Shown piece by piece: positions 38,054 to 61,868 of a DNA stretch of 64,000 nt (position 1 is the stretch's first letter; each line of letters begins with the position of its first letter). This stretch comes from an uncultured Rikenella sp. (GTDB lineage Bacteria > Bacteroidota > Bacteroidia > Bacteroidales > VadinHA17). Made by a program: the position numbers and the translations under genes. The stretch is from assembly GCA_964621005.1 (NCBI GenBank), contig CAZUIF010000010.1, forward strand, positions 43,368 to 107,367, given 5' to 3'. A model generated the notes under the pieces. That model ran no database searches. It was not told the origin of the DNA and saw only the letters and a list, made by a program, of their open reading frames with translations.

Positions 38054-38821
38054 ATGAAAGCAACGATTGTACAATGCGACCTCCACTGGGAGGACAGGGA
38101 TGCCAGCCTTTCGCATATCTCAGCCCTGCTTGATGCTGCTTCTCCCGGAGAAGGGATTGTGGTGCTGCCGGAGATGTTCACCACCGGATTCACAATGAAT
38201 CCAGCGCCCCTTGCCGAGGGGATGGACGGCCCCACGGTGCAGTGGATGAAGGAGAGGGCTTCCGGCGGAGGATATGCCCTGTGCGGTTCGGTGATCATTG
38301 GTGAGGAGGGGAGGTTTTACAACCGCATGGTCTTTGTCACACCGGAGGGCAGCGTGACTTATTACGACAAGCGTCACCTCCATTCAATGAGCGGGGAACA
38401 TACTGTTTACAGTCGTGGCAATAAGCGTGTTGTGGCGTCTTACCGCGAGTTAGGCTTTAACCTGCAGGTTTGTTATGATCTGCGCTTTCCGGTATGGTCA
38501 AGGAACCGTGGCGACACCGATGTTATTATATATTCGGCCAACTGGCCGGCTGTACGAAGCAGTGTCTGGAAGGCGCTTCTGGTGGCCAGGGCGATAGAGA
38601 ACCAGTGCTACGTGGTAGGAGTGAACCGGGTAGGTGTCAATCCTGACGGCACTTCATATACGGGTGATTCAGCCATTATAGGCCCGAAGGGGGAACTTCT
38701 TGCCTCACCTGAACCCGGTGCCGAGGGTGTTATCTCTGCAACCCTCTCACGTGAAGCGCTTGACAAATACCGTGAGGATATGCCTGTCTGGCGGGATGCG
38801 GATCCGTTTGAATTGATTTAG
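38054..38821 (+). CDS. Nitrilase-family amidohydrolase (omega-amidase YafV-like)
   Basis: LPEMF, YDKRHL, VCYDLRFP (Glu-Lys-Cys triad), ARAIENQ. Confidence 0.9.
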   Translation: MKATIVQCDLHWEDRDASLSHISALLDAASPGEGIVVLPEMFTTGFTMNPAPLAEGMDGPTVQWMKERASGGGYALCGSVIIGEEGRFYNRMVFVTPEGSVTYYDKRHLHSMSGEHTVYSRGNKRVVASYRELGFNLQVCYDLRFPVWSRNRGDTDVIIYSANWPAVRSSVWKALLVARAIENQCYVVGVNRVGVNPDGTSYTGDSAIIGPKGELLASPEPGAEGVISATLSREALDKYREDMPVWRDADPFELI

Positions 38822-38923
38822 GCAATAGGCATTAGGCATTAGGCAAGAGTGTTGACAATGGATTACGTAACTAAATGATAGACAGTTACTTCACTACTGC
38901 CTATTGTCTAATGCCTGCTGCCT
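38819..38923. repeat. Heptamer-armed miniature element A
   Basis: TAGGCAA TAGGCAT TAGGCAT TAGGCAA GAGTG, 40 nt core starting TTGACA, then CACTACT GCCTATT GTCTAAT GCCTGCT GCCT. Confidence 0.85.
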
Positions 38924-41859
38924 GCTCTGAGCGCAGCGAAGAGCACTTCCGCAGGATGCAGTGCAACACGGCCTGTGCCGTCTTTTACATGGTGACGGCA
39001 GCTGGTTCCGGGGGCAACAATGAGAGTCTTTTCAGATGCCTTGCGCACATCAGGAAACAACACAAGTTCACCAACTTTCTGAGAGAGGTCAAAGTGCTCC
39101 TTTTCATACCCGAAGGCTCCTGCCATGCCACAGCATCCTGACGGTATCTCCCTGACCCTGAAGTTTTTTGGTATCGAAAGAGCCTCGAGAACCGGAGCAG
39201 ATGTTGTAATTGCCTTCTCCTGACAGTGGACGTGAACCAGTACTTCGGCAGGTTCTTCAGTAAACATGTCACTATTTATCCTGCCTGCCCTGAACTCCCT
39301 GGCAACGAATTCCTCAAGGGTAAAAGTGTGCTGTGCCAGTCTCAGTGCCTCCGGCCTGTGCTTTTCTCCGGCAAGATCCGGGAACTCATCCCTGAAGCCG
39401 AGAATGGCCGATGGCTCGATTCCGACAAGAGGACGGGCTTCGCCTACAAGTGGTGATAAGGTTTCAATGTTTTTGATTATCAGTTTCTTTGCCTTGCGCA
39501 GGAACCCTTTCGAAATATAGGTACGTGCACTGGGAGCATTGCCTGTGACAGTGATGCAGTAACCGAGCCGGGTCAGCAGTTCAACAGTGGCTATGCCTGC
39601 ATTCAGGTCATTATGATTTGTGAATTCATCCACGAAAAGGCAGACCTCGCCTGAAGGAATTTGCGGGTTGAGCCTTTCCATGTTTCTTCCAAGCCATCTT
39701 CTGAAGGTCCGTGGAGCAAGCAGCGGTATGCTTCGTTCAGCCGCAAAACCTGTTACCTTTTTGATAATCAGTGATGTGAATCTATTGGAGACGAAGAAAT
39801 TGAAGATGCCGGGGATGAAGGAAAAGAGGCTGTAGATCTTTGGCAGCGAGGCTATCAGGCGTGTACGGAGTGATGGCGGATGCACGTCATTGTAATGCTG
39901 CAGGAACTCCGACTTCAGTTTGGCAACATCGACCCCTGAAGGGCACTCGCTGCGGCATCCCTTGCAGGCAAGACACAGATCCAGTATCTCATATATTTCC
40001 TTACTGTCCCACGGGTCTGGCTTTTCAGCATAGAGCATCTCCCTCATTATGTTGGCCCTCGCACGGGTGGTCAGCCGCTCGTCGCCGGTAGCCATATAGC
40101 TGGGACACATCAGGCCGCCTATGACACTGCTCTTGCGGCAGTCGCCCGACCCGTTGCACTTCTCGGCGGCGCGCACAACACCTCCAGAATCCGAGAAGTC
40201 ATAATAGGTCCTGAGCTCCGGTGTTGGTTTTCCCGGCTCGTAACGGAGCCACCGGTCCATGGGAGGGGTATTGACTATTTTTCCCGGATTGAGTATGTTA
40301 TCCGGGTCAAAGACCCTCTTTATACGCTTGTTGAGCTGATAGTTATGCTCGCCGATGATCAGCGGGATGAACTCACCCCTGAGCCTTCCGTCGCCATGCT
40401 CTCCGCTCATCGAACCGCGGTACTTTTTGACTATACGGGCAGTCTCTTCGGCAATGGTGCGGAGGAGCCTTGCCTCACCGGCATCCTTGAGATTTATCAG
40501 GGGCCTTATATGGAGTTCGCCGGTGCCTATATGTGCATGATATACAGATTCTTTCCCGTATGCGGCGAGCATATCCTCAATATCAGCGACGAATTCACCA
40601 AGCCTGCTGACGTCGACGGCACAGTCTTCAATCAGGGATATAGGCTTTGCGTCTCCCGGCATGTTTGACAAAATACCCAGTCCTGCCTTCCTGAGATCCC
40701 ACACCCTCTTAACATCCCCGCCCCAGACCAGCGGGAAGGCGTAGCCAAGGCCCTCAGCCCGCATTTCACCCTCCATCTGTGCTGCTGCAGCCAATATCTC
40801 TTCCCGTCCAGTGGCACAGAATTCCACTATTAGCAACGCACCCGGATCACCCTCTATGAAGAACCGGTTCCGCTTCTGGCTCTCAACAGTGGCTGCCAGC
40901 CTCAGGATGTTGTTGTCCATCAGCTCAACGGCCCACGGTTTATGTTTAAGCGCTATGAGGTTAGCCCTGAATGCATCATTGCGGTGAACAAGGTGCACGC
41001 ATGAAAGGGCCTTCACCGGCGGGGGCAGCGGAACCAGTCCCAACTTCGCCTCGGTGACTATGGCAAGGGTGCCCTCAGAACCGGCTATTAGTCGCGCCAG
41101 GTTGATCCTCCGGCCTGATCCGGTCGTGAACGGTTCGCTGTACAGCAGGTCGTCCAGTGCATACCCGGTATTACGGCGGGGAATTGTATTGTCAGGGTAT
41201 TCACGCTCTACCGCATCCCGGTTTTCCGGGTCCGACATGATTTTGTCAATCTCCCTGTATATCTCACCCTCAGCAGTTTGCAGGGTGCATTTATCCCTGT
41301 ACTGCTCTTCATCAAGAGCACCGAAATAAACCTCGGAACCGTCATGAAGCAATGCCCTTACCCCGATAATATGATCCCTTACTGAACCGTAAACAAGGGA
41401 GTGCAGGCCGCAACCGTTATTTCCGATCATTCCTCCGAGGTTGCACCGGCTGGAGGTGGATGTCTCCGGCCCGAACATGAGTCCGTGATTTCGAAGGACC
41501 GCATTAAGTTCATCGGGGACAACCCCGGGCTCGAGCCTGACCCATTTTTCTTCAGTATTGATTTCCAGTATCTTGCCAAAATGACGTGACAGGTCAGCCA
41601 CTATTCCTGAACCCACAACCTGTCCTGCCAGCGATGTTCCTGCCGCCCGCGGAATGATTCCTGTGCGATGCTTCGAGGCGAACGTAAGCAGCTTCCTGAT
41701 GTCTTCAGCGTGGCGGGGAAAGACAACTGCCAGTGGTTCTTCCCGGTAGATGGAAGCATCAGTGGCGTACATCAGCCTCGAACTCATGTCATGTCTCACC
41801 TCACCCTCAAGCAGTGAGGCCAGATGTCCGATTTCTGACGAAGAGATATGGGTATCCAT
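38908..41859 (-). CDS. FAD-linked, Fe-S-binding oxidoreductase (GlcD/GlcF, YdiJ-like 2-hydroxyacid dehydrogenase)
   Basis: AAGTSLAGQ, GSEGTL, GEHGDG, CNGSGDC, CLACKGCRSECP, CCGMAG. Confidence 0.88.
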   Translation of the reverse strand: MDTHISSSEIGHLASLLEGEVRHDMSSRLMYATDASIYREEPLAVVFPRHAEDIRKLLTFASKHRTGIIPRAAGTSLAGQVVGSGIVADLSRHFGKILEINTEEKWVRLEPGVVPDELNAVLRNHGLMFGPETSTSSRCNLGGMIGNNGCGLHSLVYGSVRDHIIGVRALLHDGSEVYFGALDEEQYRDKCTLQTAEGEIYREIDKIMSDPENRDAVEREYPDNTIPRRNTGYALDDLLYSEPFTTGSGRRINLARLIAGSEGTLAIVTEAKLGLVPLPPPVKALSCVHLVHRNDAFRANLIALKHKPWAVELMDNNILRLAATVESQKRNRFFIEGDPGALLIVEFCATGREEILAAAAQMEGEMRAEGLGYAFPLVWGGDVKRVWDLRKAGLGILSNMPGDAKPISLIEDCAVDVSRLGEFVADIEDMLAAYGKESVYHAHIGTGELHIRPLINLKDAGEARLLRTIAEETARIVKKYRGSMSGEHGDGRLRGEFIPLIIGEHNYQLNKRIKRVFDPDNILNPGKIVNTPPMDRWLRYEPGKPTPELRTYYDFSDSGGVVRAAEKCNGSGDCRKSSVIGGLMCPSYMATGDERLTTRARANIMREMLYAEKPDPWDSKEIYEILDLCLACKGCRSECPSGVDVAKLKSEFLQHYNDVHPPSLRTRLIASLPKIYSLFSFIPGIFNFFVSNRFTSLIIKKVTGFAAERSIPLLAPRTFRRWLGRNMERLNPQIPSGEVCLFVDEFTNHNDLNAGIATVELLTRLGYCITVTGNAPSARTYISKGFLRKAKKLIIKNIETLSPLVGEARPLVGIEPSAILGFRDEFPDLAGEKHRPEALRLAQHTFTLEEFVAREFRAGRINSDMFTEEPAEVLVHVHCQEKAITTSAPVLEALSIPKNFRVREIPSGCCGMAGAFGYEKEHFDLSQKVGELVLFPDVRKASEKTLIVAPGTSCRHHVKDGTGRVALHPAEVLFAALRAGSRH

Positions 41860-42046: not shown

Positions 42047-43054
42047 ATGGAATTGCTTGAACAGATCAAAATGAATGCCAGGCGGCACAACAAAATGATT
42101 GTATTGCCGGAAGGAACAGAGGAGAGGACCCTTAAAGCAGCAGATGCAGTGCTGGCTGAGGGGATAGCGCGAATCACCCTGCTCGGAAATCCTTCGGAAA
42201 TTGAGACTATGGCTGCCTCATTTGGTCTGAAGAACATCGGCAAGGCTATCATAATAAACCCGCTTGACCATCCCAGGAAGAAACACTACATTGAGACCAT
42301 GGTTGAGCTTCGCAAGAGCAAGGGACTGACCGTTGAGGATGCATCGAAGCTTATTGAGGATCCCCTTTACCTGGGTGTAATGATGATCAAATGCGGTGAC
42401 GCCGACGGTGAGGTGGCAGGAGCAAGGAATACCACCGGCGATGTGCTGAGGCCGGCATTCCAGTACGTAAAGACAGCCCCGGGCATTTCGGTGGTTTCGG
42501 GTGCATTCATCATGATACTGAAAGACAAGGAGTTCGGGGCAGACGGCATCATTGTCTTCGCCGACGGTGCGGTACATCCTGACCCGACAGACAAGGAACT
42601 GGCAGAGATAGCTGTTGCCACCGCCCGCACCACGAAAACCATCGTGGGAGTGGAACCCAAGGTTGCCCTGCTGAGCTTCTCGACAATGGGCAGTGCAAAA
42701 CATCCGCTTGTAGACAAGGTGGTGAGTGCCACGAAGATGGCGAAGGAGATGGCTCCCGAATTCATGTTCGAGGGTGAACTTCAGGCAGATGCAGCCCTGA
42801 TAGAGGCCATCGGCCAGAAGAAGGCCCCGGGCAGTAAGATCGCCGGGAAGGCCAATGTTCTTGTATTCCCCAACCTGGAGTGCGGAAACATCGCGTACAA
42901 GCTTGTTGAGAGGCTTGCCCATGCACAGGCAATAGGACCGGTACTGCAGGGGATGGCAGCACCCATCAACGACCTCTCGAGAGGCTGTTCCGTCAGTGAC
43001 ATTATTAACGTAGTCGCCATAACCGCCAACCAGGCAGCCGGCTTAACCAAATAA
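42047..43054 (+). CDS. pta: Phosphate acetyltransferase
   Basis: LPEGTEERTL, GELQADAA, FPNLECGNIAYK, DLSRGCS. Confidence 0.95.
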   Translation: MELLEQIKMNARRHNKMIVLPEGTEERTLKAADAVLAEGIARITLLGNPSEIETMAASFGLKNIGKAIIINPLDHPRKKHYIETMVELRKSKGLTVEDASKLIEDPLYLGVMMIKCGDADGEVAGARNTTGDVLRPAFQYVKTAPGISVVSGAFIMILKDKEFGADGIIVFADGAVHPDPTDKELAEIAVATARTTKTIVGVEPKVALLSFSTMGSAKHPLVDKVVSATKMAKEMAPEFMFEGELQADAALIEAIGQKKAPGSKIAGKANVLVFPNLECGNIAYKLVERLAHAQAIGPVLQGMAAPINDLSRGCSVSDIINVVAITANQAAGLTK

Positions 43055-43067
43055 TCCAAAGCTAAAC

Positions 43068-44279
43068 ATGAATATTCTCGTATTGAACTGTGGCAGCTCA
43101 TCAATTAAGTATCAGCTGTTTGACATGGGAGACAGCGCCAGGGTACTGGCAAAAGGGCTGCTCGAAAGAATCGGCCTTACAGACGGAATTCTTACCCACA
43201 AGCCCACCGGCAAGGATCCTTACAAGGTAGTACTTGATATTCCGGATCATACAGTGGGCATAAACATGGTTATGGAAGCCCTGGTCAACCCGGTTCACGG
43301 TGTAATTAAAAGCATTTCCGAAATCAAGGCGGTGGGTCACCGGGTGGCTCACGGAGGCGAAAACTTCAAGGAATCGGTGCTGATTGACAATGATGTGAAA
43401 CGCGATATAGAGAGCTGCGCCGAGCTTGCGCCGCTGCATAACCCGGCTCACCTGAAAGGGATACTTTCGTGCGAGAAACTTCTTCCGGGAATCCCCCAGG
43501 TAGCTGTATTTGACACATCTTTCCACCAGACAATGCCTGATTATGCATACATGTACGCAATCCCGTACGAGTACTATGAGAAATACCGTATCCGCAAGTA
43601 CGGGTTCCACGGTACCAGCCACAGGTTCGTTGCTGAAAAGGCCTGCAGGATGCTGAACATGGACCTTCACAAATCAAAGATAATCACCTGCCACCTGGGC
43701 AACGGCGCTTCAATAACAGCGATCGAGAATGGCAAATCAATCGATACATCCATGGGTTTCACCCCTGTTGACGGACTTATAATGGGAACCCGTACCGGTG
43801 AGATCGATCCGGGCGTGTTGCTCTATCTTGCTGATAAAGAGGAACTGAGCGTTAGCGGGGTTAACAACATGATCAACAAGAAGAGCGGTGTTGCCGGCAT
43901 TTCACAGCTCTCCTCTGACATGCGCGACCTTGAGATTGCAGCCAATGAAGGGAATCCGAAGGCACTCCTTGCCCTGAACATGTATGCCTACAAGATCAAG
44001 AAGTTCATCGGTGCATACGTGGCGGCGATGAACGGCATTGACCTGCTGATCTTCACGGCCGGTGTAGGTGAAAATGATTTCAATGCAAGGAAGATGATAT
44101 GCACCGGGATGGAGTATCTTGGCATTGAAATCAATCCCGACATAAACCACGGGGTCAAGGGCAAGGACCTTGTCATTTCAACACCTTCCTCGAAAGTGAA
44201 GGTGATGGTGGTTACAACGGACGAAGAGTTTGTGATTGCATCCGATACTAAAGCAATAGTAGAGAAGTTTACTCACTAA
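43068..44279 (+). CDS. ackA: Acetate kinase
   Basis: LNCGSSSIKYQL, GHRVAHGG, LAPLHNP, VFDTSFH, YGFHGTSH, TDEE. Confidence 0.97.
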   Translation: MNILVLNCGSSSIKYQLFDMGDSARVLAKGLLERIGLTDGILTHKPTGKDPYKVVLDIPDHTVGINMVMEALVNPVHGVIKSISEIKAVGHRVAHGGENFKESVLIDNDVKRDIESCAELAPLHNPAHLKGILSCEKLLPGIPQVAVFDTSFHQTMPDYAYMYAIPYEYYEKYRIRKYGFHGTSHRFVAEKACRMLNMDLHKSKIITCHLGNGASITAIENGKSIDTSMGFTPVDGLIMGTRTGEIDPGVLLYLADKEELSVSGVNNMINKKSGVAGISQLSSDMRDLEIAANEGNPKALLALNMYAYKIKKFIGAYVAAMNGIDLLIFTAGVGENDFNARKMICTGMEYLGIEINPDINHGVKGKDLVISTPSSKVKVMVVTTDEEFVIASDTKAIVEKFTH

Positions 44280-44291
44280 ACATTAACAATC

Positions 44292-45200
44292 ATGGTTTTA
44301 AAGCACCTAACCGAACTCAGGCAACTGCTTGTTGACAAGCCTACCAGGCGGCTGGTACTTGCCGCGGCACAGGACCACAATTCACTCTCGTCGGCCCTCA
44401 TGGCTGCCCGTGACGGATTCATTGAGCCCATACTGGTTGGCGACAGGGAGGCGATCCAGAAGATTGCTGCCCAGAACAGCATGGACATCAGCGGATTGAG
44501 GGTGGTGCATGAGCCTGATACCGAAATGGCGGTGGAGATAGCCGTCAGGATGGTGCGAAGCAACCAGGCTGACATACTCATGAAGGGCAAGGTGGGAACG
44601 TCATCCCTTCTCAAAGGGGTGCTGAACAAGGAGTGGGGACTGAGATCAGGCTCCCTGCTCTCTCATTTTGCAATATTCGAGGTGGCAGCTTACCACAAGC
44701 TCATTGCGGTAACCGATGTGGCAATGAATATCGCCCCTAACCTTCAGGACAAGATTGCCATAGTCAACAACTCCGTCGCATGCCTCAACAGGCTGGGAGT
44801 TGAGACTCCGAAAGTGGCAGTGCTCGGGGCCGTGGAGATGGTAAGCGAGAACATGCAGGCAACCCTCGACGCGGCACTGCTGTCAAAGATGAACCAGCGT
44901 GACCAGATCAGGAACTGCATCATCGACGGACCGCTGGCCTTTGACAATGCCATCAGCCTCGAAAGCGCGGTACACAAAGGTATCAGGAGTGATGTGGCAG
45001 GCGATACGGACCTCCTGATCATGCCAGACATAGAGGTCGGCAATGTCCTCTATAAATCACTTGTGTTCTTCGCCCATGCGGGCGTGGCAGCGGTGATCCT
45101 CGGGGCAACAGCACCAATAGTGCTCACATCCAGGAGCGACTCTGACCAGGCGAAATACTTCAGTATACTGCTTGCGGCAGCAATCTCCAGACAGGACTGA
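44292..45200 (+). CDS. ptb: Phosphate butyryltransferase, paralog 1
   Basis: ILMKG, DGPLAFDNAIS, PDIEVGNVLYK, LTSRSDS. Confidence 0.88.
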   Translation: MVLKHLTELRQLLVDKPTRRLVLAAAQDHNSLSSALMAARDGFIEPILVGDREAIQKIAAQNSMDISGLRVVHEPDTEMAVEIAVRMVRSNQADILMKGKVGTSSLLKGVLNKEWGLRSGSLLSHFAIFEVAAYHKLIAVTDVAMNIAPNLQDKIAIVNNSVACLNRLGVETPKVAVLGAVEMVSENMQATLDAALLSKMNQRDQIRNCIIDGPLAFDNAISLESAVHKGIRSDVAGDTDLLIMPDIEVGNVLYKSLVFFAHAGVAAVILGATAPIVLTSRSDSDQAKYFSILLAAAISRQD

Positions 45201-45201
45201 T

Positions 45202-46116
45202 ATGATCACGAGCCTCGGGCAGATGGCCGAAGCTGTCCGGTCATCAGGAACCAGGAAGAAGATAGCTGTTGCCTGGGCGCAGGACCCGAATACCGTAGGT
45301 TCGCTATACAGAGCTGTAAGTGAGGGCTTTGTTGATGCTCTGATGATCGGGCGCAGGGAACATATTATCAATACCTGCAGGGAAACGGGTGCAGATCCCG
45401 GCCGTTTCACAATTATTGAGGCAGAGAATGAGAAGAGTGCTGCGGAAATTGCGGTTGCATTGACCCGTTCCGGCGAAGCCGATGTGGTGATGAAAGGCCT
45501 GGTTGGTACGGACAAGTTCCTCAGGGCGGTCATGGACAGGGATAAGGGATTGCTTCCTCCGAAAGCTGTAATGAGTTATGTCTGTGCCGTCGAAATTCCC
45601 GCGTACCGCAAGCTGTTGTTCATCACAGACACTGCCGTGATTCCATTCCCGGACCTCGATCAGAAAGTGGCAATGGCCAGGTATGCCGTTGACATGGCTC
45701 ACCGGTTCGGGATTGAGAAACCAAAGGTGGCCCTGATAGGGGCGTCGGAGAAGGTCAGCAGCCATTTCCCGAATACACTTGACTATTCTGTCATGTGCAA
45801 GATGGCAGAGAGAGGCCAGATTGCCGGATGCGTGATGGACGGCCCGGTTGATATTTTCCTGGCGTGCGATCCGGAAAGCGTCAGAATCAAGGGAGTTGAC
45901 ACCCCGCTGGCAGGAGATGCCGACATACTTCTTTTCCCGTCCCTGGAGTCGTGCAACCCCTTCTACAAGGGGCTGATGCTCTTCGGCGGGGGCGAACTGG
46001 CCGGGATGATCTGCGGTACCTCCAAGCCCGTGGTAATGATGTCAAGAAGCGAAAGTGAACTTTCAAAATACTATTGTGTGGCACTCTCATGCCTGATGGC
46101 CTCGCAAAATCAGTAA
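45202..46116 (+). CDS. ptb: Phosphate butyryltransferase, paralog 2 (divergent)
   Basis: VMKGLV, DGPVDIFLA, PSLESCNPFYK, MMSRSES; start placed at MITSLG. Confidence 0.8.
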   Translation: MITSLGQMAEAVRSSGTRKKIAVAWAQDPNTVGSLYRAVSEGFVDALMIGRREHIINTCRETGADPGRFTIIEAENEKSAAEIAVALTRSGEADVVMKGLVGTDKFLRAVMDRDKGLLPPKAVMSYVCAVEIPAYRKLLFITDTAVIPFPDLDQKVAMARYAVDMAHRFGIEKPKVALIGASEKVSSHFPNTLDYSVMCKMAERGQIAGCVMDGPVDIFLACDPESVRIKGVDTPLAGDADILLFPSLESCNPFYKGLMLFGGGELAGMICGTSKPVVMMSRSESELSKYYCVALSCLMASQNQ

Positions 46117-46120
46117 ATAT

Positions 46121-47200: not shown

Positions 47201-47296
47201 GCAAGAGGCAAGAGCCATTGGCCATTAGTGTTGACAATGCTTGCGGTAACTAAATGATATACAGCTATATCGCTATTGCCTACTGCCTGCTGCCTA
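47198..47296. repeat. Heptamer-armed miniature element B
   Basis: TAGGCAA GAGGCAA GAGCCAT TGGCCAT TAGTG, 40 nt core sharing TTGACAATG and GTAACTAAATGATA with A, ends GCCTA. Confidence 0.85.
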
Positions 47297-49256: not shown

Positions 49257-49371
49257 CAGGCATTAGGCAGTAGGCATCAGGAAATAGGGAAGAGTGTTGA
49301 CATCATTCAGGCAGTGCCTGAATGAATTACAATAATTTCACCACTGCCTAATGCCTATTGCCTCTTGCCTA
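49257..49371. repeat. Heptamer-armed miniature element C
   Basis: CAGGCAT TAGGCAG TAGGCAT ... GAGTGTTGACA; 42 nt core with hairpin TCATTCAGGC/GCCTGAATGA; right arm ends GCCTA. Confidence 0.85.
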
Positions 49372-51242: not shown

Positions 51243-51257
51243 AAACAGTGTTTGCTT

Positions 51258-51713
51258 ATGAAAGACCGTATACTTGCCTTTCTTCAGAGCGAAAACAAGA
51301 GTTATGCTCAATTTGCAGATGAAATCGGGGTTCAGCCTTCGGGCATTTCCCATATACTGTCCGGAAGGAACAATCCAAGCCTGGATTTCGTGATTAAGAT
51401 GCTGCACCGCTATCCGTCGCTGTCAGCGGACTGGCTCCTTTTCGGAAAGGGTCCGATGTACAGATTTATATCCCAGCCTACCCTGTTTGACACTTCTGAA
51501 ACAGGAGCAGGCACGGAAGGTGAATTACCTGTTAAGGACCGGGAATTTACTGATAGTGATGTGATGTCACCGGCGGAAAACTTCAATCAACCGCAGGATT
51601 ATACTGAACAGACGCTGCCAGGGGTGTCCAACAGTGACTCCGGAGGTAGGAAAATTGAGCGCATAGTAATGTTTTATACGGACAAAACCTTTTCTGAGTA
51701 CAAACCTTCCTGA
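51258..51713 (+). CDS. XRE-family HTH protein with conserved-looking C-terminal motif
   Basis: FADEIGVQPSGISHILSGRNNPSLDF...WLLFGKG; C-terminal IERIVMFYTDKTF. Confidence 0.88.
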   Translation: MKDRILAFLQSENKSYAQFADEIGVQPSGISHILSGRNNPSLDFVIKMLHRYPSLSADWLLFGKGPMYRFISQPTLFDTSETGAGTEGELPVKDREFTDSDVMSPAENFNQPQDYTEQTLPGVSNSDSGGRKIERIVMFYTDKTFSEYKPS

Positions 51714-55170: not shown

Positions 55171-57342
55171 ATGGCTGAACTGGCAGCACAGATACGCAGC
55201 AGGCAGAGCCTGGTGCTCAAAGCCCTTCCCGGCCCCGTCTCCGAGACGGATAAAAGACTTCTTGCCCAGGCCACCGAAATAGCAAAGATCAGTTACTCGG
55301 CTGATAATAAATACCTTGGTGAGCCGCTGCCTCTTTATTATCTTGAACTTGCAAGGCTTACCGTCTCTGCCATAGGCCTCAACCTCCCTGCAGCAATCAG
55401 TGCACTGCTGTCAGGCGTCAGGGAGAATACTGACGGCTGGGCAATGATCGAAGAGCTTGGCGACCCTACCATCAGGGAGGTGATCAAAGGGCTTTCTCGG
55501 GTCACAGCACTGAAAGGGAGGGACTTCACAGGACAGGCCGAGAACTTCCGTAAGCTGCTTCTCTCTCTCGCGGATGACGGAAGGGTGATACTCATCGCCC
55601 TGGCAGAGAGACTCCTCCTGATGCGACGCCTCGACTGGCTGCCGGAGAAGGAGCGACTGCCTCTCGCATCAGAGACCTATTTCCTCTTCGCGCCACTGGC
55701 GCACAGGCTTGGTTATTACAACATCAAGTCAGAAATGGAAGACCTGGCAATGAAACTCATGGAGCCTTCCGAGTACAATGAGATTGAAGCCAGGCTGAAA
55801 CAGACAGTAACCTCCAGGAACAGGCTTATAAAGGAATTCTCACAGCCTGTGACAGAGAAGCTCGATGCCCTCGGAATAAAGTATGAACTCAAGAGCCGCA
55901 CAAAATCAATTCACTCTATCTGGCAGAAAATGAAGCGCCAGGGGGTGGCGTTCGAGGAGGTTTTTGACATATTTGCAATCAGGATAATCATTGATGCCGA
56001 TCAGGCCCATGAAAAATCATCGTGCTGGCAGGTTTACTCGGTGGTGACCGACCTCTACCAGCCTGACCCGAGCAGGATGCGCGACTGGATATCGGTTCCC
56101 AAGACAAACGGTTATGAATCGCTCCATACTACCGTGGTGACACCTGCAGGAAGGTGGGTTGAAGTACAGATACGCACAAGGCGGATGGATGAGATCGCCG
56201 AGAAGGGCCTTGCTGCACACTTCAGGTACAAGGGGATCAGGGGTGAAGGCGGGCTCGATACCTGGATGGCGCAGATGCGCGAAGTGCTGGGAACCGTTGA
56301 AAAGGAGGGAAGCGATTTCCTTGGAGAGATAAGACCAGGGCTCTATTCCGACGAAGTCTTTGTTTTCACACCAAAGGGAGAGGTACGGCAGTTGCCCGTG
56401 GGTGCAACACTGCTTGACTTCGCCTTTGACATTCATACTGAGGTAGGCTCCAAATGCATCGGCGGAAAGATCAACGGGCGGAATGTCCAGCTGAAACAAA
56501 AGCTTCAGAATGGTGATCATGTGTCTGTCATCACCTCGTCAAAGCAGTCCCCGAAACGCGACTGGCTGGCGTTTGTGATCACCAACAAGGCCCGGACGAA
56601 AATCAAACAGGCTCTTAATGAGGAGAAGTTCAGGCTTGCCGCCGACGGCAAGGAGATGCTCACCCGCAGGCTGAAGAACTGGAAGATTCCCTACGGTGAT
56701 GCGACTGTCGTCAAGCTGCTGACAGAGTACGGTTTCAAGACATCGCAGGATCTCTATTTCAGTATCGCCATAGGCGAAATGGATCTTCTTCAGATAAAGA
56801 AGGTACTTCTCCGGTCCGAAGAACAGCCTGAGGAAGAGCCCACCAGGACTCCCGAACTGCATCCCCAGGAAGAAACAGGTGGTGGTACTGACTATCTTGT
56901 TATAGATGAAAGAGTTGAAGGGCTTGATTATAAGTTGGCCAAATGCTGTAACCCGGTCTTTGGCGACCGCATTTTCGGTTTTGTAACCGTACTTGAGGGG
57001 ATTAAGATACACAGGGCAACATGTCCGAATGCTGATTTCATGATATCGAGCTTCCCGTACAGGGTTGTGAGAGCCCGTTGGACAAGGCTTGACTCTTCAA
57101 GGGGATTCCTCAGCACCGTGAAGCTGACGGGGGTGGAGAACCTGGGAATAGTTGCCCGTATCACCGAGATCCTTTCCGAATATAAGACAGTGTCAGTCAA
57201 GAACTTCACTTACAGCATGAACAACGGCCTCTTTGAAGGACGGATGGAACTGCTTGTGCCGAACATCAACGTCCTTTACGGCATTATTAAGAAGATTCAG
57301 TCGGTAAAGGGTATCACCCGGGTGACGAGGGTGGAGGGATAA
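55171..57342 (+). CDS. Long RelA/SpoT homolog with degenerate HD hydrolase
   Basis: Synthetase motifs (RTKSIHSI, KTNGYESLHT, EVQIRT), TGS, CC.P..GD and ACT domains; LLSGV replaces LLHDV. Confidence 0.92.
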   Translation: MAELAAQIRSRQSLVLKALPGPVSETDKRLLAQATEIAKISYSADNKYLGEPLPLYYLELARLTVSAIGLNLPAAISALLSGVRENTDGWAMIEELGDPTIREVIKGLSRVTALKGRDFTGQAENFRKLLLSLADDGRVILIALAERLLLMRRLDWLPEKERLPLASETYFLFAPLAHRLGYYNIKSEMEDLAMKLMEPSEYNEIEARLKQTVTSRNRLIKEFSQPVTEKLDALGIKYELKSRTKSIHSIWQKMKRQGVAFEEVFDIFAIRIIIDADQAHEKSSCWQVYSVVTDLYQPDPSRMRDWISVPKTNGYESLHTTVVTPAGRWVEVQIRTRRMDEIAEKGLAAHFRYKGIRGEGGLDTWMAQMREVLGTVEKEGSDFLGEIRPGLYSDEVFVFTPKGEVRQLPVGATLLDFAFDIHTEVGSKCIGGKINGRNVQLKQKLQNGDHVSVITSSKQSPKRDWLAFVITNKARTKIKQALNEEKFRLAADGKEMLTRRLKNWKIPYGDATVVKLLTEYGFKTSQDLYFSIAIGEMDLLQIKKVLLRSEEQPEEEPTRTPELHPQEETGGGTDYLVIDERVEGLDYKLAKCCNPVFGDRIFGFVTVLEGIKIHRATCPNADFMISSFPYRVVRARWTRLDSSRGFLSTVKLTGVENLGIVARITEILSEYKTVSVKNFTYSMNNGLFEGRMELLVPNINVLYGIIKKIQSVKGITRVTRVEG

Positions 57343-57344: not shown

Positions 57345-57443
57345 TAGGCAGTAGGCAAGAGGCAATAGGCATTAGTGTTGACAACGGATCAAGTAATGGA
57401 ATGGTTATCAATCATTTCACTACTGCCTACTGCCTATTGCCTG
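57345..57443. repeat. Heptamer-armed miniature element D
   Basis: TAGGCAG TAGGCAA GAGGCAA TAGGCAT TAGTG, 40 nt core starting TTGACA, then CACTACT GCCTACT GCCTATT GCCTG. Confidence 0.85.
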
Positions 57444-57448
57444 ACTGA

Positions 57449-60376
57449 TTAATACCTCGGATCAGGCCGGACGGGCAGTTTTGCCATCTTTTCCACTTCA
57501 ACGGTTGTATAGCCGAACTCCTCAACCACTTTTCCCTGTATGAGATAGGTACCGCTGCCGCGGAAAGGCCATCCGTTCAGCGACTGCGGGAAATGGGTCG
57601 TGTCAAAGAACTCCCCGTCACTGTCGATGAAACACCCGAAGTTCATCCACTCACGTTTGACAGTTTTTATGTATTTGACAGTCACCAGGTGACCCACCAT
57701 CCTCACCCGGCGGCCCACGGCCTCCTTCATGCCGGCGGCTGTCACATCACCCCTGTACTTCGTCTGCAGTATGTCAAACCATGTCAGTGTCACGGGAAAA
57801 CCGAGGAGTTCAATCTCGTCATAGGCATCCTCAAGCTTCGACTGCTCGAAGGGAGGCATGGAGAATCGCTTCGGCTCAGGATTGAAAAGGGTGCGTGCTG
57901 TCTCGCTCTTGCCCCTGTTGATAAGCATGTGAGCCTCCCAGAGCAGCAGCGCCTTGCTCTTCCCGGTGAACCGGAATGCACCCGTACGGATCAGTATTAC
58001 GGTCTGTTCCAGACCCGGACCAATACGTGAGATGAAATTATCTATATCCTTGAAATTCCCCCCTTTATTGCGTTCAACAATGATAGCTTTTGCCAGGTTT
58101 GTCTCCAGGCCCTGGATGTGGATCAGTCCGATAAAGATGGAGGTTCCGTATATGGTTGTTTTATATGTGCTTCGGTTGATGCAGGGTGCTTCAATGATTG
58201 CTCCCTCGCGGCGGGCTTCCTGCACATACACCCATGTGCGGTAGAATCCTCCGAAGTTGTTGATGACGGCCACCATGAACTCCAGGGGGTAGTGTGCCTT
58301 CAGCCACAGGCTCTGGAAGCTCTCCACGGCATAGGAGGCGGAGTGTGCCTTGGAGAAGGAGTAGCCGGCAAACGACTCTATCTGGCGCCACACTTCCTTT
58401 GTGATCTTCTCGGGATATCCTTTTTCCAGGCAGTTGCTGAAAAAGCGTTCGGTGATCTTCTGCATCTCCTTCCTCGAGCGGTACTTGCCGCTCATGGCAC
58501 GCCGGAGTGTGTCAGCATCAGAGAGATCCAGGCCTGCAAAGTGGTGGCACACCTTCAGCACATCCTCCTGGTAAACCATTACCCCGAATGTCTCGCTGAG
58601 AAGATCCTTCATTACGGGATGGATATACTCAAAGTTATCAGGATGGTGGAACCGGTATATGAACTGCCGCATCATCCCCGAGCGGGCAACACCCGGCCTG
58701 ATGACAGAGCTGGCCGCCACAAGAGTCAGGTAATCATCACATCTGAGCTTCTGCAGCAGTCCCCGCATCGAGGGACTCTCAATGTAAAAACAGCCCTTGG
58801 CGTCGCCACGGCGCAGGTGATCCTTCACAACCGGGTCATTCTTGAACTGTTGTATTGCGTGCACATCTACATCCACACCGCGGTTGGCGCGGATAACCTC
58901 TGCGCTTTCCCTGATATGGCCTATTCCTCTCTGGCTCAGTATGTCAAGCTTCTCATAACCAAGCTCCTCAGCGGTGTACATGTCCCACTGCGTGGTAGGG
59001 AAGCCTTTCGGCGGCATGTCAAGGGCAGTATAACAGCACAGAGGCTCTTCCGATATGAGTATCCCGCCGGCATGGATGCTGCGCAGGTTTGGGAAGTCGG
59101 CGATTTTGTTGCCCGTTTCAAAGATAATATCCTGTATCTCACCGCGGTTGCTCTCGGCGGAGGGATCAGCAATCATTGCATCAATCTCGTCGACTGGCAG
59201 TCCGTGTACCTTGCCGAGTTCGCGGACTATCGACTTGCCGCGGAAGGTGTTGACGGTACCGAGGAGGGCAGTGTGACGGTGCCCGTAACGGCGGAAGATA
59301 TACTCCGTGACAGTGTCGCGTTCCTTCCATGAATAGTCTATGTCAAAGTCTGGCGGCGAGGTTCGTTTAGGGTTTATGAACCGCTCGAAGTAAAGGTTGA
59401 GGTCGATGGGGTCAACATTCGTGATCCTAAGACAGTATGCAACGACGGAGTTGGCTCCGCTGCCCCGGCCCACATGGTAGAAACCGCAGGCCATGGAGTA
59501 GCGGATGATGTCCCATGTTATGAGGAAGTATGCCGAGAAACCGAGGCGGTCAATTATCTCCAGTTCATGCCTCACACGTTCTTCAGCAACCTTGTTCCCG
59601 GTTCCGTAGCGGTATTTCATGCCGTCCCATGCCAGTTTCTCGAGCAGCAGCTTGTCGTCATAGCGGCTTGCCGAGTAAATCTTCTTGTTTTTTGGGGTGG
59701 TGAAGTCTATCTCAAGGGAGCAGTCGTTGAGCAGTCTGCGCGTATTTTCGATGACCTGCGGCCACATGGCGAAGGGGCGGAGAGCTTCTGCTTCAGCTAC
59801 CAGGTACTCGTCCGGGGAGGCGGTCATTTCCGGGGAGAGGCGGCTGAGGAGGGTGTTGTTGTCTACGGCGCGCAGGCTGCGGTGCACGGGGTAGTCGGCC
59901 GGCGATTCTATTGTTACGGGATGGAGGATGACACATTTCGCCAGGTCGCTCTTTTTCATTGAGATAAGGCGGCCGGCGGCGGAGGGGCGTATGCCGGTGA
60001 ACTCATTGTCACGCAGGGGATGATGGGGAGCGCCGAAGTAGATTATGTACGCGTTCGGAAAGGAGGGAGGGCGCAAGGGGAGAGGCTCCCCGCTGATATT
60101 GTGGCGGGTAAGGAACTCGTTCAGCTCGCGGAATCCCTCGTTGTTGCGTGCTATGCCTATGTAAAGCAGCCTGTTGCCGTCGCGGAACTCTATCCCGGCC
60201 GCCGGGGTGATGCTGCGGCTGCGGCACTCACGCACGAAGTCGGGTACCCCGGTAGTGTTGTTTATGTCAGTCAGCACCATCCGTTCCACACCCGCAGCCG
60301 CAGCGAGCTCAGAAAGGCGCTCGACGGAGAGGGTGCCGTAACGCAGACTGTAGTATGAGTGACAGTTTATGTACAT
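57449..60376 (-). CDS. dnaE2: Error-prone DNA polymerase III alpha subunit (DnaE2 type)
   Basis: PHP domain (HSYYSL, LTDINN), GRGSGANS, PPDFDID, DILSQRG, YSFSKAHS; 975 aa, downstream of dinB. Confidence 0.9.
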   Translation of the reverse strand: MYINCHSYYSLRYGTLSVERLSELAAAAGVERMVLTDINNTTGVPDFVRECRSRSITPAAGIEFRDGNRLLYIGIARNNEGFRELNEFLTRHNISGEPLPLRPPSFPNAYIIYFGAPHHPLRDNEFTGIRPSAAGRLISMKKSDLAKCVILHPVTIESPADYPVHRSLRAVDNNTLLSRLSPEMTASPDEYLVAEAEALRPFAMWPQVIENTRRLLNDCSLEIDFTTPKNKKIYSASRYDDKLLLEKLAWDGMKYRYGTGNKVAEERVRHELEIIDRLGFSAYFLITWDIIRYSMACGFYHVGRGSGANSVVAYCLRITNVDPIDLNLYFERFINPKRTSPPDFDIDYSWKERDTVTEYIFRRYGHRHTALLGTVNTFRGKSIVRELGKVHGLPVDEIDAMIADPSAESNRGEIQDIIFETGNKIADFPNLRSIHAGGILISEEPLCCYTALDMPPKGFPTTQWDMYTAEELGYEKLDILSQRGIGHIRESAEVIRANRGVDVDVHAIQQFKNDPVVKDHLRRGDAKGCFYIESPSMRGLLQKLRCDDYLTLVAASSVIRPGVARSGMMRQFIYRFHHPDNFEYIHPVMKDLLSETFGVMVYQEDVLKVCHHFAGLDLSDADTLRRAMSGKYRSRKEMQKITERFFSNCLEKGYPEKITKEVWRQIESFAGYSFSKAHSASYAVESFQSLWLKAHYPLEFMVAVINNFGGFYRTWVYVQEARREGAIIEAPCINRSTYKTTIYGTSIFIGLIHIQGLETNLAKAIIVERNKGGNFKDIDNFISRIGPGLEQTVILIRTGAFRFTGKSKALLLWEAHMLINRGKSETARTLFNPEPKRFSMPPFEQSKLEDAYDEIELLGFPVTLTWFDILQTKYRGDVTAAGMKEAVGRRVRMVGHLVTVKYIKTVKREWMNFGCFIDSDGEFFDTTHFPQSLNGWPFRGSGTYLIQGKVVEEFGYTTVEVEKMAKLPVRPDPRY

Positions 60377-60397: not shown

Positions 60398-60511
60398 CAG
60401 GCAGTAGGCAATAGGCAATAGGCAATAGTGTAAGTTGATGATTGCCTGGCTACTGAAGACAGCATACCGGAGACTGACATTTCCACTACTGCCTACTGCC
60501 TATTGCCTGCT
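60398..60511. repeat. Heptamer-armed miniature element E
   Basis: CAGGCAG (TAGGCAA)x3 TAGTG, 53 nt core, then CACTACT GCCTACT GCCTATT GCCTG. Confidence 0.85.
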
Positions 60512-61754
60512 AATGATAGTGCCATCCCCGTAATCTCTCCTCCATACGTGATTTTTCGGCCAGCAACTCCGTCGCCTTTCTGAGCTCGCGCTCGCTACGC
60601 TCCGCGGCGGTCATCACCCCGGCGGCCCGGCGTACGGCATAACGGCCGAAACGGCCCCGCAGGCTGTCCATTGTCATATAGAGGCTCACCATCTCGGGCG
60701 TGTCCTCAAACATGTTCAGTTGCTGCACCCCACGCACCAGGCCGCTCACCTTCACCCCGATGAGCCTGATGAGCATGCGCCGCTGCCAGAGACGCCTGAA
60801 CAGGCTCTGCGCCTCGCTGATGAGCACATGGTCAAAGGCGGTGTAGGGTATCCGCTGCTGCAGCGTGTGAGTGTCAAAATCAGAGTACCGTATCCGCACC
60901 GTGAGGCATGATGCCAGCTTCTCCTGGCGGCGCAGCTCATAGGCCAGCTTCTCGGTCATGCTCACTATCATCTGGTTGAGCATCACCGTGTCAGTGGTGT
61001 CACGGTCAAAGGTGTGCTCGGTGCTTATCGACTTCTGCTCTGAGTAGCTGATGACAGGAGTGTTGTCAATGCCATTGGCCTTCTTCCATATCTCCATGCC
61101 GTTCTGGCCCATGAGCGACTCCAGCATCTCGGCCGGGATGACACGCAGCGTATGTATCGTTGAGATGCCCATGGAGCGCAGCGTGTGATAGGTCTTCTGG
61201 CCTATCATGGGTATCTTCCTGATTGACAGCGGATCAAGGAAGGGGATCACATACTGCTGCGCCACCTCCCTCTCGCCGTTGGGCTTCGCCTCACCGGCAG
61301 CGATCTTCGAAACGGTCTTGTTGACCGAAAGCCCTATTGAGATAGGGAGCCCCGTCTCCTTAATTATAGTGTCACGCAGCTCATGTGACCAGCGGGCGCA
61401 GCCGTGAAAGCGCTCCATCCCGGTGAGATCGATGTAGTGCTCATCCACCGATGCCTTCTCATACAGTGGCGACCTCTCCGCGATTATATCGGTCACCATC
61501 CTGGAATATTTCGTGTACATCTCCATGTCACCGCGGATAAATACCGCCTCGGGGCACATGGCCCGGGCCATCTTCATCGGCATGGCCGAGCTGACTCCGA
61601 AGCTGCGTGCCTCGTAGCTGCAGCTCGAGACCACACCGCGGTCAGAGCTGCCACCGATGATCACGGGACGGCCGTTGAGCCGGCTGTCGCGGACCCTCTC
61701 CACCGACACGAAGAAGGTGTCAAGATCAAGATGCAGTATGCTCCGGGTGTCCAT
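60510..61754 (-). CDS. dinB: Y-family DNA polymerase IV
   Basis: HLDLDTFFVSVE, SYEAR, SVDE (catalytic residues intact), SKIAA; clamp-like motif QLNMF. Confidence 0.93.
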   Translation of the reverse strand: MDTRSILHLDLDTFFVSVERVRDSRLNGRPVIIGGSSDRGVVSSCSYEARSFGVSSAMPMKMARAMCPEAVFIRGDMEMYTKYSRMVTDIIAERSPLYEKASVDEHYIDLTGMERFHGCARWSHELRDTIIKETGLPISIGLSVNKTVSKIAAGEAKPNGEREVAQQYVIPFLDPLSIRKIPMIGQKTYHTLRSMGISTIHTLRVIPAEMLESLMGQNGMEIWKKANGIDNTPVISYSEQKSISTEHTFDRDTTDTVMLNQMIVSMTEKLAYELRRQEKLASCLTVRIRYSDFDTHTLQQRIPYTAFDHVLISEAQSLFRRLWQRRMLIRLIGVKVSGLVRGVQQLNMFEDTPEMVSLYMTMDSLRGRFGRYAVRRAAGVMTAAERSERELRKATELLAEKSRMEERLRGWHYH

Positions 61755-61766
61755 GGTTTAATAGTT

Positions 61767-61868
61767 CAGGCAATAGGCAGTAGGCAATAGGCAGTAGTGG
61801 GAGTCTCCGGTCTTGATTCAGTTAATGATGGCGAACTGTAGATTGCAGGCTGCTGATTGCCTGCTGCC
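61767..61868. repeat. Heptamer-armed miniature element F (degenerate right arm)
   Basis: CAGGCAA TAGGCAG TAGGCAA TAGGCAG TAGTG ... TGATTGCCTGCTGCCT. Confidence 0.75.

Follow-up and report, generated by a model that had tools for sequence, protein, structure and literature searches.

Repetitive extragenic palindromic (REP) sequences and bacterial interspersed mosaic elements (BIMEs) are well studied in Proteobacteria, and Bacteroidota are dominant in guts and digesters. Dispersed repeats of 21-27 nt embedded in heptamer arrays were reportedly described in Cyanobacteria by Elhai and co-workers in 2008. REPs and BIMEs are intergenic imperfect palindromes that serve as terminators, mRNA stabilisers and topological insulators and that bind IHF, Pol I and gyrase (Ton-Hoang et al., PMC3333891). 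A BIME-1 is composed of a REP, a conserved linker with an IHF site, and an inverted REP; BIME copy number differs per locus, and spread is ascribed to transposition or recombination followed by local amplification (PMC3333891). The enzyme TnpA_REP (RAYT) requires GTAG and a stem mismatch and cuts CC/T inside CTAC (PMC3333891). Among heptamer arrays, TAACTGA repeats occur in Beggiatoaceae, Cyanobacteria and five Bacteroidetes with 7-nt indels between strains, and in a mapped Microcystis sample eight heptamer sets lie between stop codons in one chromosomal orientation (MacGregor, 2015, PMC4679880). Here we analyse a 64,000 nt stretch of contig CAZUIF010000010.1 from an uncultured Rikenella sp. 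(the window, whose positions are used as coordinates unless another contig is named), which carries six elements with inverted arms made of the heptamer (N)AGGCA(N). We know of no described REP/BIME counterpart in Bacteroidota, and a literature search found none. These elements have a common architecture, lie mostly at gene ends, supply stop codons to their neighbours, and have been gained, lost, replaced and inverted at orthologous sites. With a probability of roughly 0.55, we read them as BIME-like mosaic palindromic repeats that act, or are tolerated, as two-way 3′-end hairpins with stops in all frames and that have spread by recombination or transposition plus local amplification.

A preliminary description of the window had listed six copies of a heptamer-armed miniature element, and all six were found in the places given: A (38819-38924), B (47198-47296), C (49257-49371), D (57345-57443), E (60398-60509) and F (61767-61869). 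The window contains 26 matches to the arm dimer AGGCANNAGGCA where 0.19 are expected, a count reached in 0 of 100 shuffles, and every match falls within one of the six elements. Period-7 arrays were called at every arm by Tandem Repeats Finder, and the arms of each element were paired by an inverted-repeat finder. Left arms hold the 4-5 units originally counted, with degenerate units in B (AGCCA/GGCCA) and C (AGGAA/AGGGA), and the reported core lengths are likewise correct when measured from AGTG to CACT (CGCT in B, CACC in C): cores A, B and D have 40 nt, and core C has 42. Also as described, cores A-D all open with GTGTTGACA on the + strand, and A and B have the string GTAACTAAATGATA in common. 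The resulting layout of A-D is 4-5 left units, (G/T)AGTG, a 40-nt centre (42 nt in C) beginning with TTGACA, CAC(T/C) (CGCT in B) and 3-4 TGCCT units, so that the core with its junctions spans 48-50 nt and reads AGTG-TTGACAA...TTTCAC-T. Elements E and F have arms like those of A-D and unrelated centres.

All six copies lie inside 23 kb, with none in the remaining 41 kb, and no seventh copy was found in the 64 kb when a covariance model built from 30 family members was run on the whole window without filters. The model scores A-D at 64-90 bits on the + strand and 28-43 bits on the - strand. The two strands score about equally for E (48.5 bits on +, 42.8 on -) and for F (about 25-28 bits on both). 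Five of the six elements are predicted to form long hairpins as RNA, with a minimum free energy (MFE) of -43 to -57 kcal/mol and z scores of -4.3 to -8.5; the exception is B (z -0.7).

The same core is dispersed in related genomes. A 20-base pattern spanning arm and core (AGGCANNAGGCANNAGTGTTGACA, which contains TTGACA) was found in 67 stretches of JGI and ENA metagenome contigs, and those with labels come from bioreactor or fermentation assemblies. The pattern had 0 matches in viral contigs, and plasmid and phage collections gave a single match type, a Nostoc plasmid heptamer array. About 45 further oriented matches to the covariance model were found in related metagenome contigs. Among 31 distinct canonical copies, summarised by the consensus ATAGGCAATAGGCAATAGTGTTGACAATnCATnCAGTAACTGnATGATTnGCAGTAATTTCACTACTGCCTACTGCCTAC, the arm-to-arm distance is 52 nt in most; elements of the family range in length from 87 to 235 nt, while core length is nearly fixed at 48-50 nt. 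Conservation is concentrated in the arms and the core ends, and the core interior is about 63% identical from copy to copy.

Comparison of 30 copies by RNAalifold revealed pairing only in the arms and between AGTG and CACT, with no covarying or conserved structure within the centre, and a reading of the core as a structured RNA was dropped on this ground. An Rfam 15 search returned only RNase P RNA and tRNA in the window at the gathering threshold and no match to the element in five related loci at E <= 1. No exact-string match to the arm sequences was found in the literature. Within the centre, 14 of 30 copies contain WATCAANNNNTTR when a single mismatch is allowed, compared with 8% of shuffles, and 12 of these 14 have it at one position, as WATCATNNNGTTA. 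The core also conserves a sigma-70-like TTGACA-N16-nATGAT arrangement in which the A at position 2 of the -10 box is nearly invariant; the version in element B, TTGACA-16-AATGAT, scored 10/12 as a site of the sigma-70 type. The RNase P RNA and one tRNA gene of the window are preceded by promoters with the Bacteroidetes TAnnTTTG box, which the core motif does not match, and a sigma-70 promoter is kept as a minor possibility only.

The positions of the elements relative to genes are strongly patterned. Each of A-D occupies the gap of a convergent gene pair; E lies between the dinB-like and dnaE2-like genes, and F is upstream of the dinB-like gene in a divergent intergenic region. In the family as a whole, 22 of the 25 copies (88%) with both neighbours resolved fill convergent gaps, some of them being orthologous copies of one site. 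Array and gene end are separated in these convergent settings by -18 to +13 nt, with overlaps at -4, -11 and -18, that is, in heptamer steps. Half and variant copies show the same tendency, since their AGGCA array adjoins a gene 3′ end in 35 of 43 cases. By hand count from the ORF lists, the window contains eight convergent junctions between large ORFs in all, and the four in its first 38 kb carry no element.

For both neighbours of A and of B, and for one neighbour of C, the TAG of the outermost heptamer is the actual stop. Stops in all three frames are present in 32 of 60 arms (53%) compared with 6.5% of shuffled arms. The arms stop all three frames for ribosomes arriving from either side and often give the actual stop codon. 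They can also encode the end of a protein: the C-terminus of the FAD-oxidase/Fe-S protein beside element A is specified by arm heptamers (...RAGSRH* in the window, 38908-38925) and differs in L128 (2790-2830) and L129 (2800-2840), two contigs from relatives. Because this C-terminus varies among relatives both in sequence and in total protein length (982, 983 and 990 aa), the repeats rewrite protein tails. The placement of 22 of 25 copies between convergent ends, together with the stops in the arms, indicates that a 3′-end role is probably central to these elements.

Each element shows its own variant of this arrangement. Element A (+ strand) has a left arm at 38819-38847 (TAGGCAA TAGGCAT TAGGCAT TAGGCAA G), a core at 38848-38895 (AGTG TTGACAAT...ACTT CACT) and a right arm at 38896-38924 (A CTGCCTA TTGTCTA ATGCCTG CTGCCTG); it scores 90.2 bits on + with an RNA MFE of -47.1 (z -6.4). 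Its first TAG (38819-38821) ends an amidohydrolase gene (38054-38821), and CTA at 38908-38910 in its right arm ends the FAD-oxidase/Fe-S gene (38908-41859, - strand). Element B (+ strand), a decaying copy, consists of a left arm at 47198-47226 (TAGGCAA GAGGCAA GAGCCAT TGGCCAT T), a core at 47227-47274 (AGTG TTGACAAT...ATAT CGCT) and a right arm at 47275-47296, and scores 71.1 bits on + with a fold z of -0.7. TAG at 47198-47200 ends the butyrate kinase gene and CTA at 47294-47296 ends an SDR gene on the - strand. In element C (+ strand; 64.2 bits on +, MFE -57.3, z -8.5), a left arm of five units, the inner two degenerate (49257-49292), and a right arm at 49343-49371 enclose a 50-nt core (49293-49342) with a hairpin of its own, TCATTCAGGCA GTG CCTGAATGA. 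CTA at 49369-49371 ends a DctA/GltP-type symporter gene on the - strand, and an FKBP gene ends at 49242, 14 nt upstream of the element.

Element D (+ strand; left arm 57345-57373, core 57374-57421, right arm 57422-57443) scores 88.4 bits on + with an MFE of -42.6 (z -5.0) and is flanked by the stops of relA/spoT (TAA, 57340-57342) and of the dnaE2-like gene (TTA, 57449-57451, - strand). No strand is assigned to E or F. In E, arms at 60398-60426 and 60488-60509 flank a 61-nt centre (60427-60487, AGTG TAAGTTGATG...ATTTC CACT), with an MFE of -48.3 and z of -5.2. The stop CTA (60510-60512) of the dinB/imuB-like gene directly adjoins its right arm, and the dnaE2-like gene starts at 60376, both genes being on the - strand. 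Element F has a left arm at 61767-61795, TAGTG, its unrelated centre, and a degenerate right arm (GCAGGC TGCTGAT TGCCTGC TGCCT) that ends at 61869 and is followed by T9 (MFE -46.6, z -4.3). It is placed between the divergent starts of the dinB-like gene (61754, - strand) and an HTH/S24 repressor gene (61966, + strand).

Syntenic contigs of relatives (L numbers) were collected via homologs of window proteins, and they reveal extensive turnover. Site A is occupied in forward orientation in the window and L155, has an inverted centre in L127, L146 and L153, is reduced to a solo left array and two degenerate right units in L128, and holds nothing in L129. At site B the element is forward in the window, L128, L157 and L174 and inverted in L127, where it has 6 left units rather than 4; L129 has a 41-nt AT-rich spacer instead. 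Site C carries a copy in the same orientation with a 91% identical centre in L127, another element with NNCGGCA-type units in L128, and an ordinary hairpin in L129. Site D is empty in L198, L199, L200, L202 and L203, in which the dnaE2-like and relA stops overlap (TATTAGTT/TATTAATT). Site E is empty in L200 and L203 and retains only a right half in L198 (CCACTA plus 3 TGCCT units). In L201 it is filled by a chimera of six AGGCA units, TAGTG, a short centre and a GACTTT-type right arm, in L202 by an AAAGTC-type arm and (CCTTAA)17 (6205-6460, dinB-like/dnaE2-like gap), and in L199 by a core-less AAAGT/ACTTT hairpin. Site F is as varied as E: relatives lack the element, have a chimera or have another sequence in its place. 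With orthologous sites filled, empty, halved, core-inverted, chimeric or held by other families, the elements prove to be both dispersed and dynamic. A lack of both empty/filled polymorphism and a conserved core had been named in the preliminary description as grounds for abandoning its reading; we find filled and empty states at all six sites and the core in about 45 related copies.

No clear target-site duplication was seen across the sites compared, and site D is the only ambiguous case. There, TATTAA precedes and TTA follows the element in the filled allele, and the five empty alleles have the overlapping stops TATTA(A/G)TT once. A TTA(A) duplication of 3-4 nt would fit this junction, and so would selection for each gene to keep its own stop. 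At site B the spacer is replaced, with no readable target duplication.

Inversion is limited to the segment between the arms, because L137 and L142 retain the right-arm units of L189 in flank orientation (the flanks align at about 80%) while the centre is reversed. The B copies of L127 and L128 have the signature AACAGATNCAGTAAC in common in opposite orientations, which indicates inversion in place at this site. Core identity values at site A (0.78 to the ortholog, 0.81 to window element B) do not decide between inversion in place and independent insertion. Among the near-identical strains L001-L006, both orientation and unit number are constant. The idea that copies keep one orientation bound to the replichore was rejected, as cores are inverted at orthologous sites and both orientations occur within 11 kb in L127 and within 3.4 kb in L172. 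Copies are kept at orthologous sites in species whose flanks are only 71-90% identical, which points to constraint on the arms and ends.

The arms satisfy the description of heptanucleotide simple sequence repeats, being head-to-tail 7-nt units that vary in number between relatives (6 units at site B in L127 compared with 4 in the window). Unit number per arm is mostly 2-5 and reaches 24, and left and right numbers are uncorrelated (r = 0.04). A single element with a 24-unit left arm and a 4-unit right arm was seen in two independent assemblies (L142, 5548-5782; L178, 11168-11402), so arms can grow far past pairing length and stay stable between samples. A single arm is a direct heptamer array without a palindrome, and pairing needs both arms. 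Across the stem, the spacer dinucleotides are complementary at only 67 of 194 bases, compared with 82 ± 4.5 in shuffles, and 4 of 97 dinucleotides match. Since spacer bases pair less than in shuffles, the stem is best described as a string of 5-bp helices with enforced mismatches between them.

Arm composition is asymmetric with respect to the core. The arm beside TTTCACT is uniform (AC, giving TGCCTAC) and the arm beside TTGACA is mixed (AT/AG/TT), and the arrangement with AT/AG on the TTGACA side and AC on the TTTCACT side holds in 26 of 31 copies. The strand opposite TTGACA gives the more stable RNA fold in 24 of 29 copies (p = 0.006). GTAG is present within 53% of right-arm units, on the opposite strand, and not as a single 5′ foot.

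Arms and cores belong to a larger set of interchangeable modules. This set comprises AGGCA arrays, the AGTG-TTGACAA end, the 48-nt centre, a GTAG-loop hairpin with TAAAGNATTGTAGA, GACTTT arrays, and chimeras of these. About one-third of the pattern matches are non-canonical: an AGGCA array and AGTGTTGACAA are followed by a GTAG-loop hairpin, with no right arm. This hairpin has a 4-5-bp stem whose sequences covary (AGCTCGTAGAGCT, GCCCGTAGGGC, CCCCGTAGGGG, GGTCGTAGACC) and is followed by (A/T)TAAAG(C/A)ATTGTAGA. Its units are tandem in L151, L167, L147, L176 and L182, form arrays with heptamers of about 56-nt period and longer in L140, L168 (3100-3750) and L135 (800-1050), and in L170 lie between two tRNA genes; no member of this hairpin family was found in the window. 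Other arrays (ATCGCAA, AGACCGC, CAGCAGT, CGGCAGT) follow AGTGTTGACAA or are mixed into arms.

In relatives, the intergenic sites of the AGGCA elements are also taken by a second armed family, in which GAAAGTC/GACTTT(A/C) units, 7 and 9 nt long, surround a palindromic centre, GATTTTCGAATTACGTTAAATCGACAATCGAAAATC; core-less hairpin versions also exist. Its members are found in L197 (1590-1860, 3060-3300 and 6450-6650), L199 (7205-7390) and L202 (4777-5012). Those of L197 correspond to sites D, E and F and have remnants of AGGCA arms at their edges. In two chimeras of L201 (6120-6360 and 4685-4930) an AGGCA left arm and (T/C)AGTG are joined to a GACTTT right arm, producing arms unable to pair.

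We propose that the BIME-like repeats would act at the RNA level, where the hairpin may protect or end the transcripts of both flanking genes, as REPs do. Replication slippage by 7 nt could alter arm length, and recombination or template switching between the inverted arms could flip the centre. Modules would be copied by an enzyme encoded elsewhere and acting in trans, or by recombination alone. This copying would be mostly local, because six copies lie in 23 kb with none in the other 41 kb and the same family is found at neighbouring sites within each strain. A HUH/RAYT-type nuclease is the leading candidate enzyme, unproven as it is. The conserved centre may be a protein-binding site, more plausibly an IHF/HU-like one, as in BIME-1, than a promoter.

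Several observations weigh against this interpretation. The preliminary description had stated that the window contains no transposase, and consistent with this no transposase or integrase was found among 40 large window ORFs scanned with Pfam and NCBIfam; the large ORFs outside that scan, at 42.0-46.1, 48.1-48.7 and 51.3-55.2 kb, have only metabolic and regulatory domains according to precomputed Pfam labels on near-identical contigs. Clustering of 403 neighbouring ORFs against each other, over 0.6 Mb of related loci, revealed no gene family recurring beside the copies, and phmmer searches of the related loci examined, with approximate IS200 TnpA and E. coli RAYT query sequences, found no Y1/HUH protein. 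Within one genome the copies are old and diverged, with no near-identical pairs among those compared and hence no sign of current mobility. A U-tract after the hairpin is absent in five of six copies, and a terminator scan flags only F (through its T9) and none of A-E, which makes classical intrinsic termination doubtful. The non-complementary arms of the L201 chimeras indicate that the hairpin is not obligatory. Strictly speaking, the arms are no REPs, as they are not individually palindromic. That TTGACA is invariant in the alignment follows at least in part by construction, because the search pattern included it; the right end, nATGAT and the length are unaffected. Finally, the IHF-like site, the RAYT-like cleavage motif and the role on RNA are proposed by resemblance.

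The nearest competing accounts differ in whether the elements move. If they were ordinary miniature inverted-repeat transposable elements (MITEs), the arms would be terminal inverted repeats and would be cut and pasted with the core by a DDE transposase whose gene lies elsewhere and which may belong to the TTA/TAA-duplicating IS5/PIF type. The elements are indeed small, non-coding and multi-copy with imperfect inverted ends of variable length, filled and empty sites occur, and the site D junction is compatible with a TTA(A) duplication. Moreover, because arm composition tracks core orientation in 26 of 31 copies, arms and core are suggested to descend together. However, D is the single readable junction, and the need for two stops could alone produce its duplication. 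No autonomous element with the same ends was found in the window, the 0.6 Mb of related loci or viral contigs, nor a transposase in the ORFs scanned and those loci; the numbers of left and right units are uncorrelated, solo arms, half elements and cross-family chimeras are common, and recent near-identical copies were not seen among those compared. A MITE is accordingly an unlikely explanation. The opposite view is of a host-evolved, non-mobile 3′-end device, in which arrays arise by slippage at stops and are kept as two-way terminators, insulators or supercoil sinks, with cores transferred by gene conversion only. The extreme bias to convergent gene ends and stop codons fits such a device, as do retention at orthologous sites whose flanks have diverged, arms and ends that are conserved around a drifting interior, and the presence of AGGCA-armed hairpins with unrelated centres downstream of genes in many other phyla. 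Heptanucleotides are also the commonest long simple repeats in prokaryotes and are ascribed to slippage (Mrazek 2007, as cited in PMC4679880). Yet a homologous 48-nt centre at dozens of unrelated loci cannot arise in place and must have been copied between loci. There is in addition no U-tract, chimeras without complementary arms exist, the four convergent junctions in the first 38 kb have no element, and close relatives have empty sites with no visible substitute. We regard this device, too, as improbable in its non-mobile form.

Three further accounts deserve less weight. An inverton, whose arms would be the inverted repeats of a recombinase and whose flipping centre would fire antisense from TTGACA-N16-nATGAT into either convergent gene, draws support from the centres inverted between fixed arms (A and B in L127, A in L146 and L153, L189 relative to L137/L142) and from the conserved sigma-70-like -35 and -10 boxes with 16-nt spacing, and Bacteroidales are known for invertible promoters. 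It is nevertheless very improbable: one orientation is present in all six to seven near-identical assemblies, flips are seen only between species-level relatives, one configuration of arm and core is kept in most copies, no recombinase gene was found nearby, and the host promoters of RNase P RNA and the tRNA gene are TAnnTTTG rather than TTGACA/TATAAT. To our knowledge, an invertible segment of 40-48 bp would also be far below known inverton sizes. That the elements are plain intrinsic terminators that merely look alike is harder still to credit. They are hairpins at gene ends, and F is followed by T9 and flagged as a terminator, but the other five lack the U-tract, neither E nor F is at the end of an operon, both being inside or upstream of one, and presence/absence polymorphism occurs at the sites. 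The shared 48-nt core, found with the same heptamer at dozens of loci, refutes plain terminators as a complete explanation. The earlier assertion that these are "not simple terminators" holds with respect to the absent U-tracts, and is weakened by the 22 of 25 resolved copies at convergent gene ends and by the stop codons in the arms. Least probable of all is an integron attC-type or other site-specific recombination site. The imperfect palindrome, the conserved inner junctions AGTG/CACT and the strand asymmetry in folding (24 of 29) are in its favour; against it are the absence of cassette arrays and of an integrase among the scanned ORFs, and the location of copies between housekeeping genes in conserved synteny. 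The attC architecture is R″-L″/L′-R′, and variable-length microsatellite arms are unlike it.

The preliminary description had proposed a non-autonomous mobile or recombination element of the REPIN, MITE or attC type. What survives is a real dispersed family with a conserved core. The REPIN label fails because the arms are direct heptamer arrays rather than palindromic REPs and no RAYT was found in the loci examined; the attC label finds neither an integron context nor an attC-type structure, and for the MITE label no autonomous partner was found in the window or the related loci examined, and the one duplication seen is an ambiguous one of 3 nt.

The window is ordinary chromosome. Its host falls in a clade of uncultured, anaerobic-digester Bacteroidales; named metagenome-assembled genomes of Bacteroidales and Bacteroidota contain homologs of the butyrate kinase and dinB-like proteins, and exact window proteins occur in ENA and JGI metagenome contigs. 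The window includes ligA, argS, ffh, folD, the nuo operon, RNase P RNA, a pta/ack/ptb/buk cluster, relA/spoT, the dinB-like/dnaE2-like pair and the HTH-S24 repressor, and the first 38 kb are ordinary core chromosome. Within these 38 kb, the convergent junction of a shikimate-dehydrogenase-like gene and truA (17254-17306) has no AGGCA element and instead contains a small GC hairpin and 2.4 copies of the heptamer TTCCCGG. Five tandem phosphotransacylase/kinase genes at 42047-47200, in the order PTA_PTB, acetate kinase, PTA_PTB, PTA_PTB, butyrate kinase, form a cluster kept in all relatives. At 51098-51243, an AT-rich segment (GC 0.42 over 50-52 kb) upstream of an HTH_3 gene (51252-51713) carries 2.6 copies of a 24-nt unit (ATTACATATGTAAATAGAATAAC) and overlapping palindromes, possibly forming an operator or an array resembling an origin. 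Two AT-rich TGATTA-N5-TAATCA palindromes (61914-61932, TTGATTAGAAATTAATCAA; 61938-61954, TGATTACAATATAATCA) closely precede the HTH/peptidase-S24 repressor gene (61966-62790). They are kept as a pair in all eight relatives examined and are likely the operator pair of a LexA-like SOS mutagenesis cassette.

Heptamer-armed hairpins also occur in other lineages. The loose pattern AGGCANNAGGCANNAGGCA was scanned against 596 Gb of genome contigs, a search for which about 1,000 chance matches are estimated and which is no measure of abundance or taxonomic range. Among the matches listed, an inverted TGCCT array was present no more than 130 nt away at about 16 of 120 AGGCA-array loci, compared with a chance per locus that we estimate at about 1e-4. 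Again among the matches listed, paired-arm loci come from Phycisphaerales, Acidobacteriota, Chthonomonadaceae, Pontiella sulfatireligans, Saccharibacteria, Chitinophagaceae, cyanobacteria (Geitlerinema) and others. The hairpins of other phyla (L019, L050, L060, L070, L076, L092, L093, L095, L111, L118) have unrelated short centres and mostly adjoin a gene 3′ end, and their covariance-model score comes from the arms only, equal on both strands. A speculative extension, to which we assign little likelihood, is that a general class of microsatellite-armed 3′-end cassettes exists across phyla. In such a class, purine-rich heptamers (AGGCA here; AAAGTC, CGGCA and others elsewhere) would be added 7 nt at a time beside stops by a unit-adding or nicking enzyme, a candidate being a HUH nuclease acting at CC/TAC, which would provide stops in all frames and a shared hairpin for convergent pairs. 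In this Bacteroidales clade the tip would be a flip-flopping 48-nt protein-binding or promoter module whose orientation sets which neighbour receives antisense transcription.

The stem of the dispersed palindrome in this BIME-like family is a microsatellite, which at the same time rewrites stop codons and C-termini of the genes beside it; certain intergenic sites are re-colonised repeatedly by different repeat families, and the element loop flips during speciation. Possible uses include strain-typing markers for uncultured digester Bacteroidales and a two-way terminator or insulator part for Bacteroides engineering. The family is also a place to seek the enzyme that moves or grows heptamer arrays, a question since the description of the cyanobacterial STRR sequences.

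Comparison with known systems places the elements among several types of repeat. Like bidirectional terminators, they provide one hairpin for two convergent genes, the setting of 88% of resolved copies; unlike these, they have no flanking A- or U-tracts, belong to a sequence family common to many loci, and also occur in operon and promoter regions (E, F). Correia elements of Neisseria carry promoter-like boxes, an IHF site and mRNA hairpins, and pneumococcal BOX elements vary in how many copies of an internal module they contain. With these and other MITEs the family shares its small size, non-coding and multi-copy nature, inverted ends and filled/empty polymorphism, and it differs in having ends of indefinite length (2-24 units), chimeras between arm families, an unproven target duplication and, in the loci examined, no autonomous partner. 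Cyanobacterial STRR/LSSR heptamers and TAACTGA repeats are likewise intergenic, variable in copy number, subject to 7-nt indels and patchy across phyla, and those of Microcystis often lie between stop codons (PMC4679880). Those repeats are mostly direct and near start codons, or have no assigned role, in contrast to the inverted arrays, hairpin, 48-nt centre and convergent gene ends seen here.

Relative to REPs and BIMEs themselves, the arms are tandem heptamer microsatellites rather than self-palindromic REPs of 20-40 nt, they overlap genes and supply stop codons, and the centre flips; the host belongs to the Bacteroidales and not the Proteobacteria, and no RAYT/REPtron was found in the loci examined. 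The likenesses are nevertheless extensive. As in BIME-1 and RIP, the elements are intergenic imperfect palindromes of about 100 nt at transcript 3′ ends. They form a mosaic of modules with unit numbers that vary per locus and strain, half elements (singlets) are common, and tandem clusters occur. Stem mismatches are apparently required, and spread is proposed to proceed by recombination or transposition with local amplification. By resemblance, the central linker of fixed length contains an IHF-like consensus as in BIME-1, and the units contain GTAG/CTAC-type motifs as in REPs, the dominant right-arm unit being TGCC/TAC. Judged by these comparisons, the family is closest in build and behaviour to the enterobacterial REP/BIME elements.

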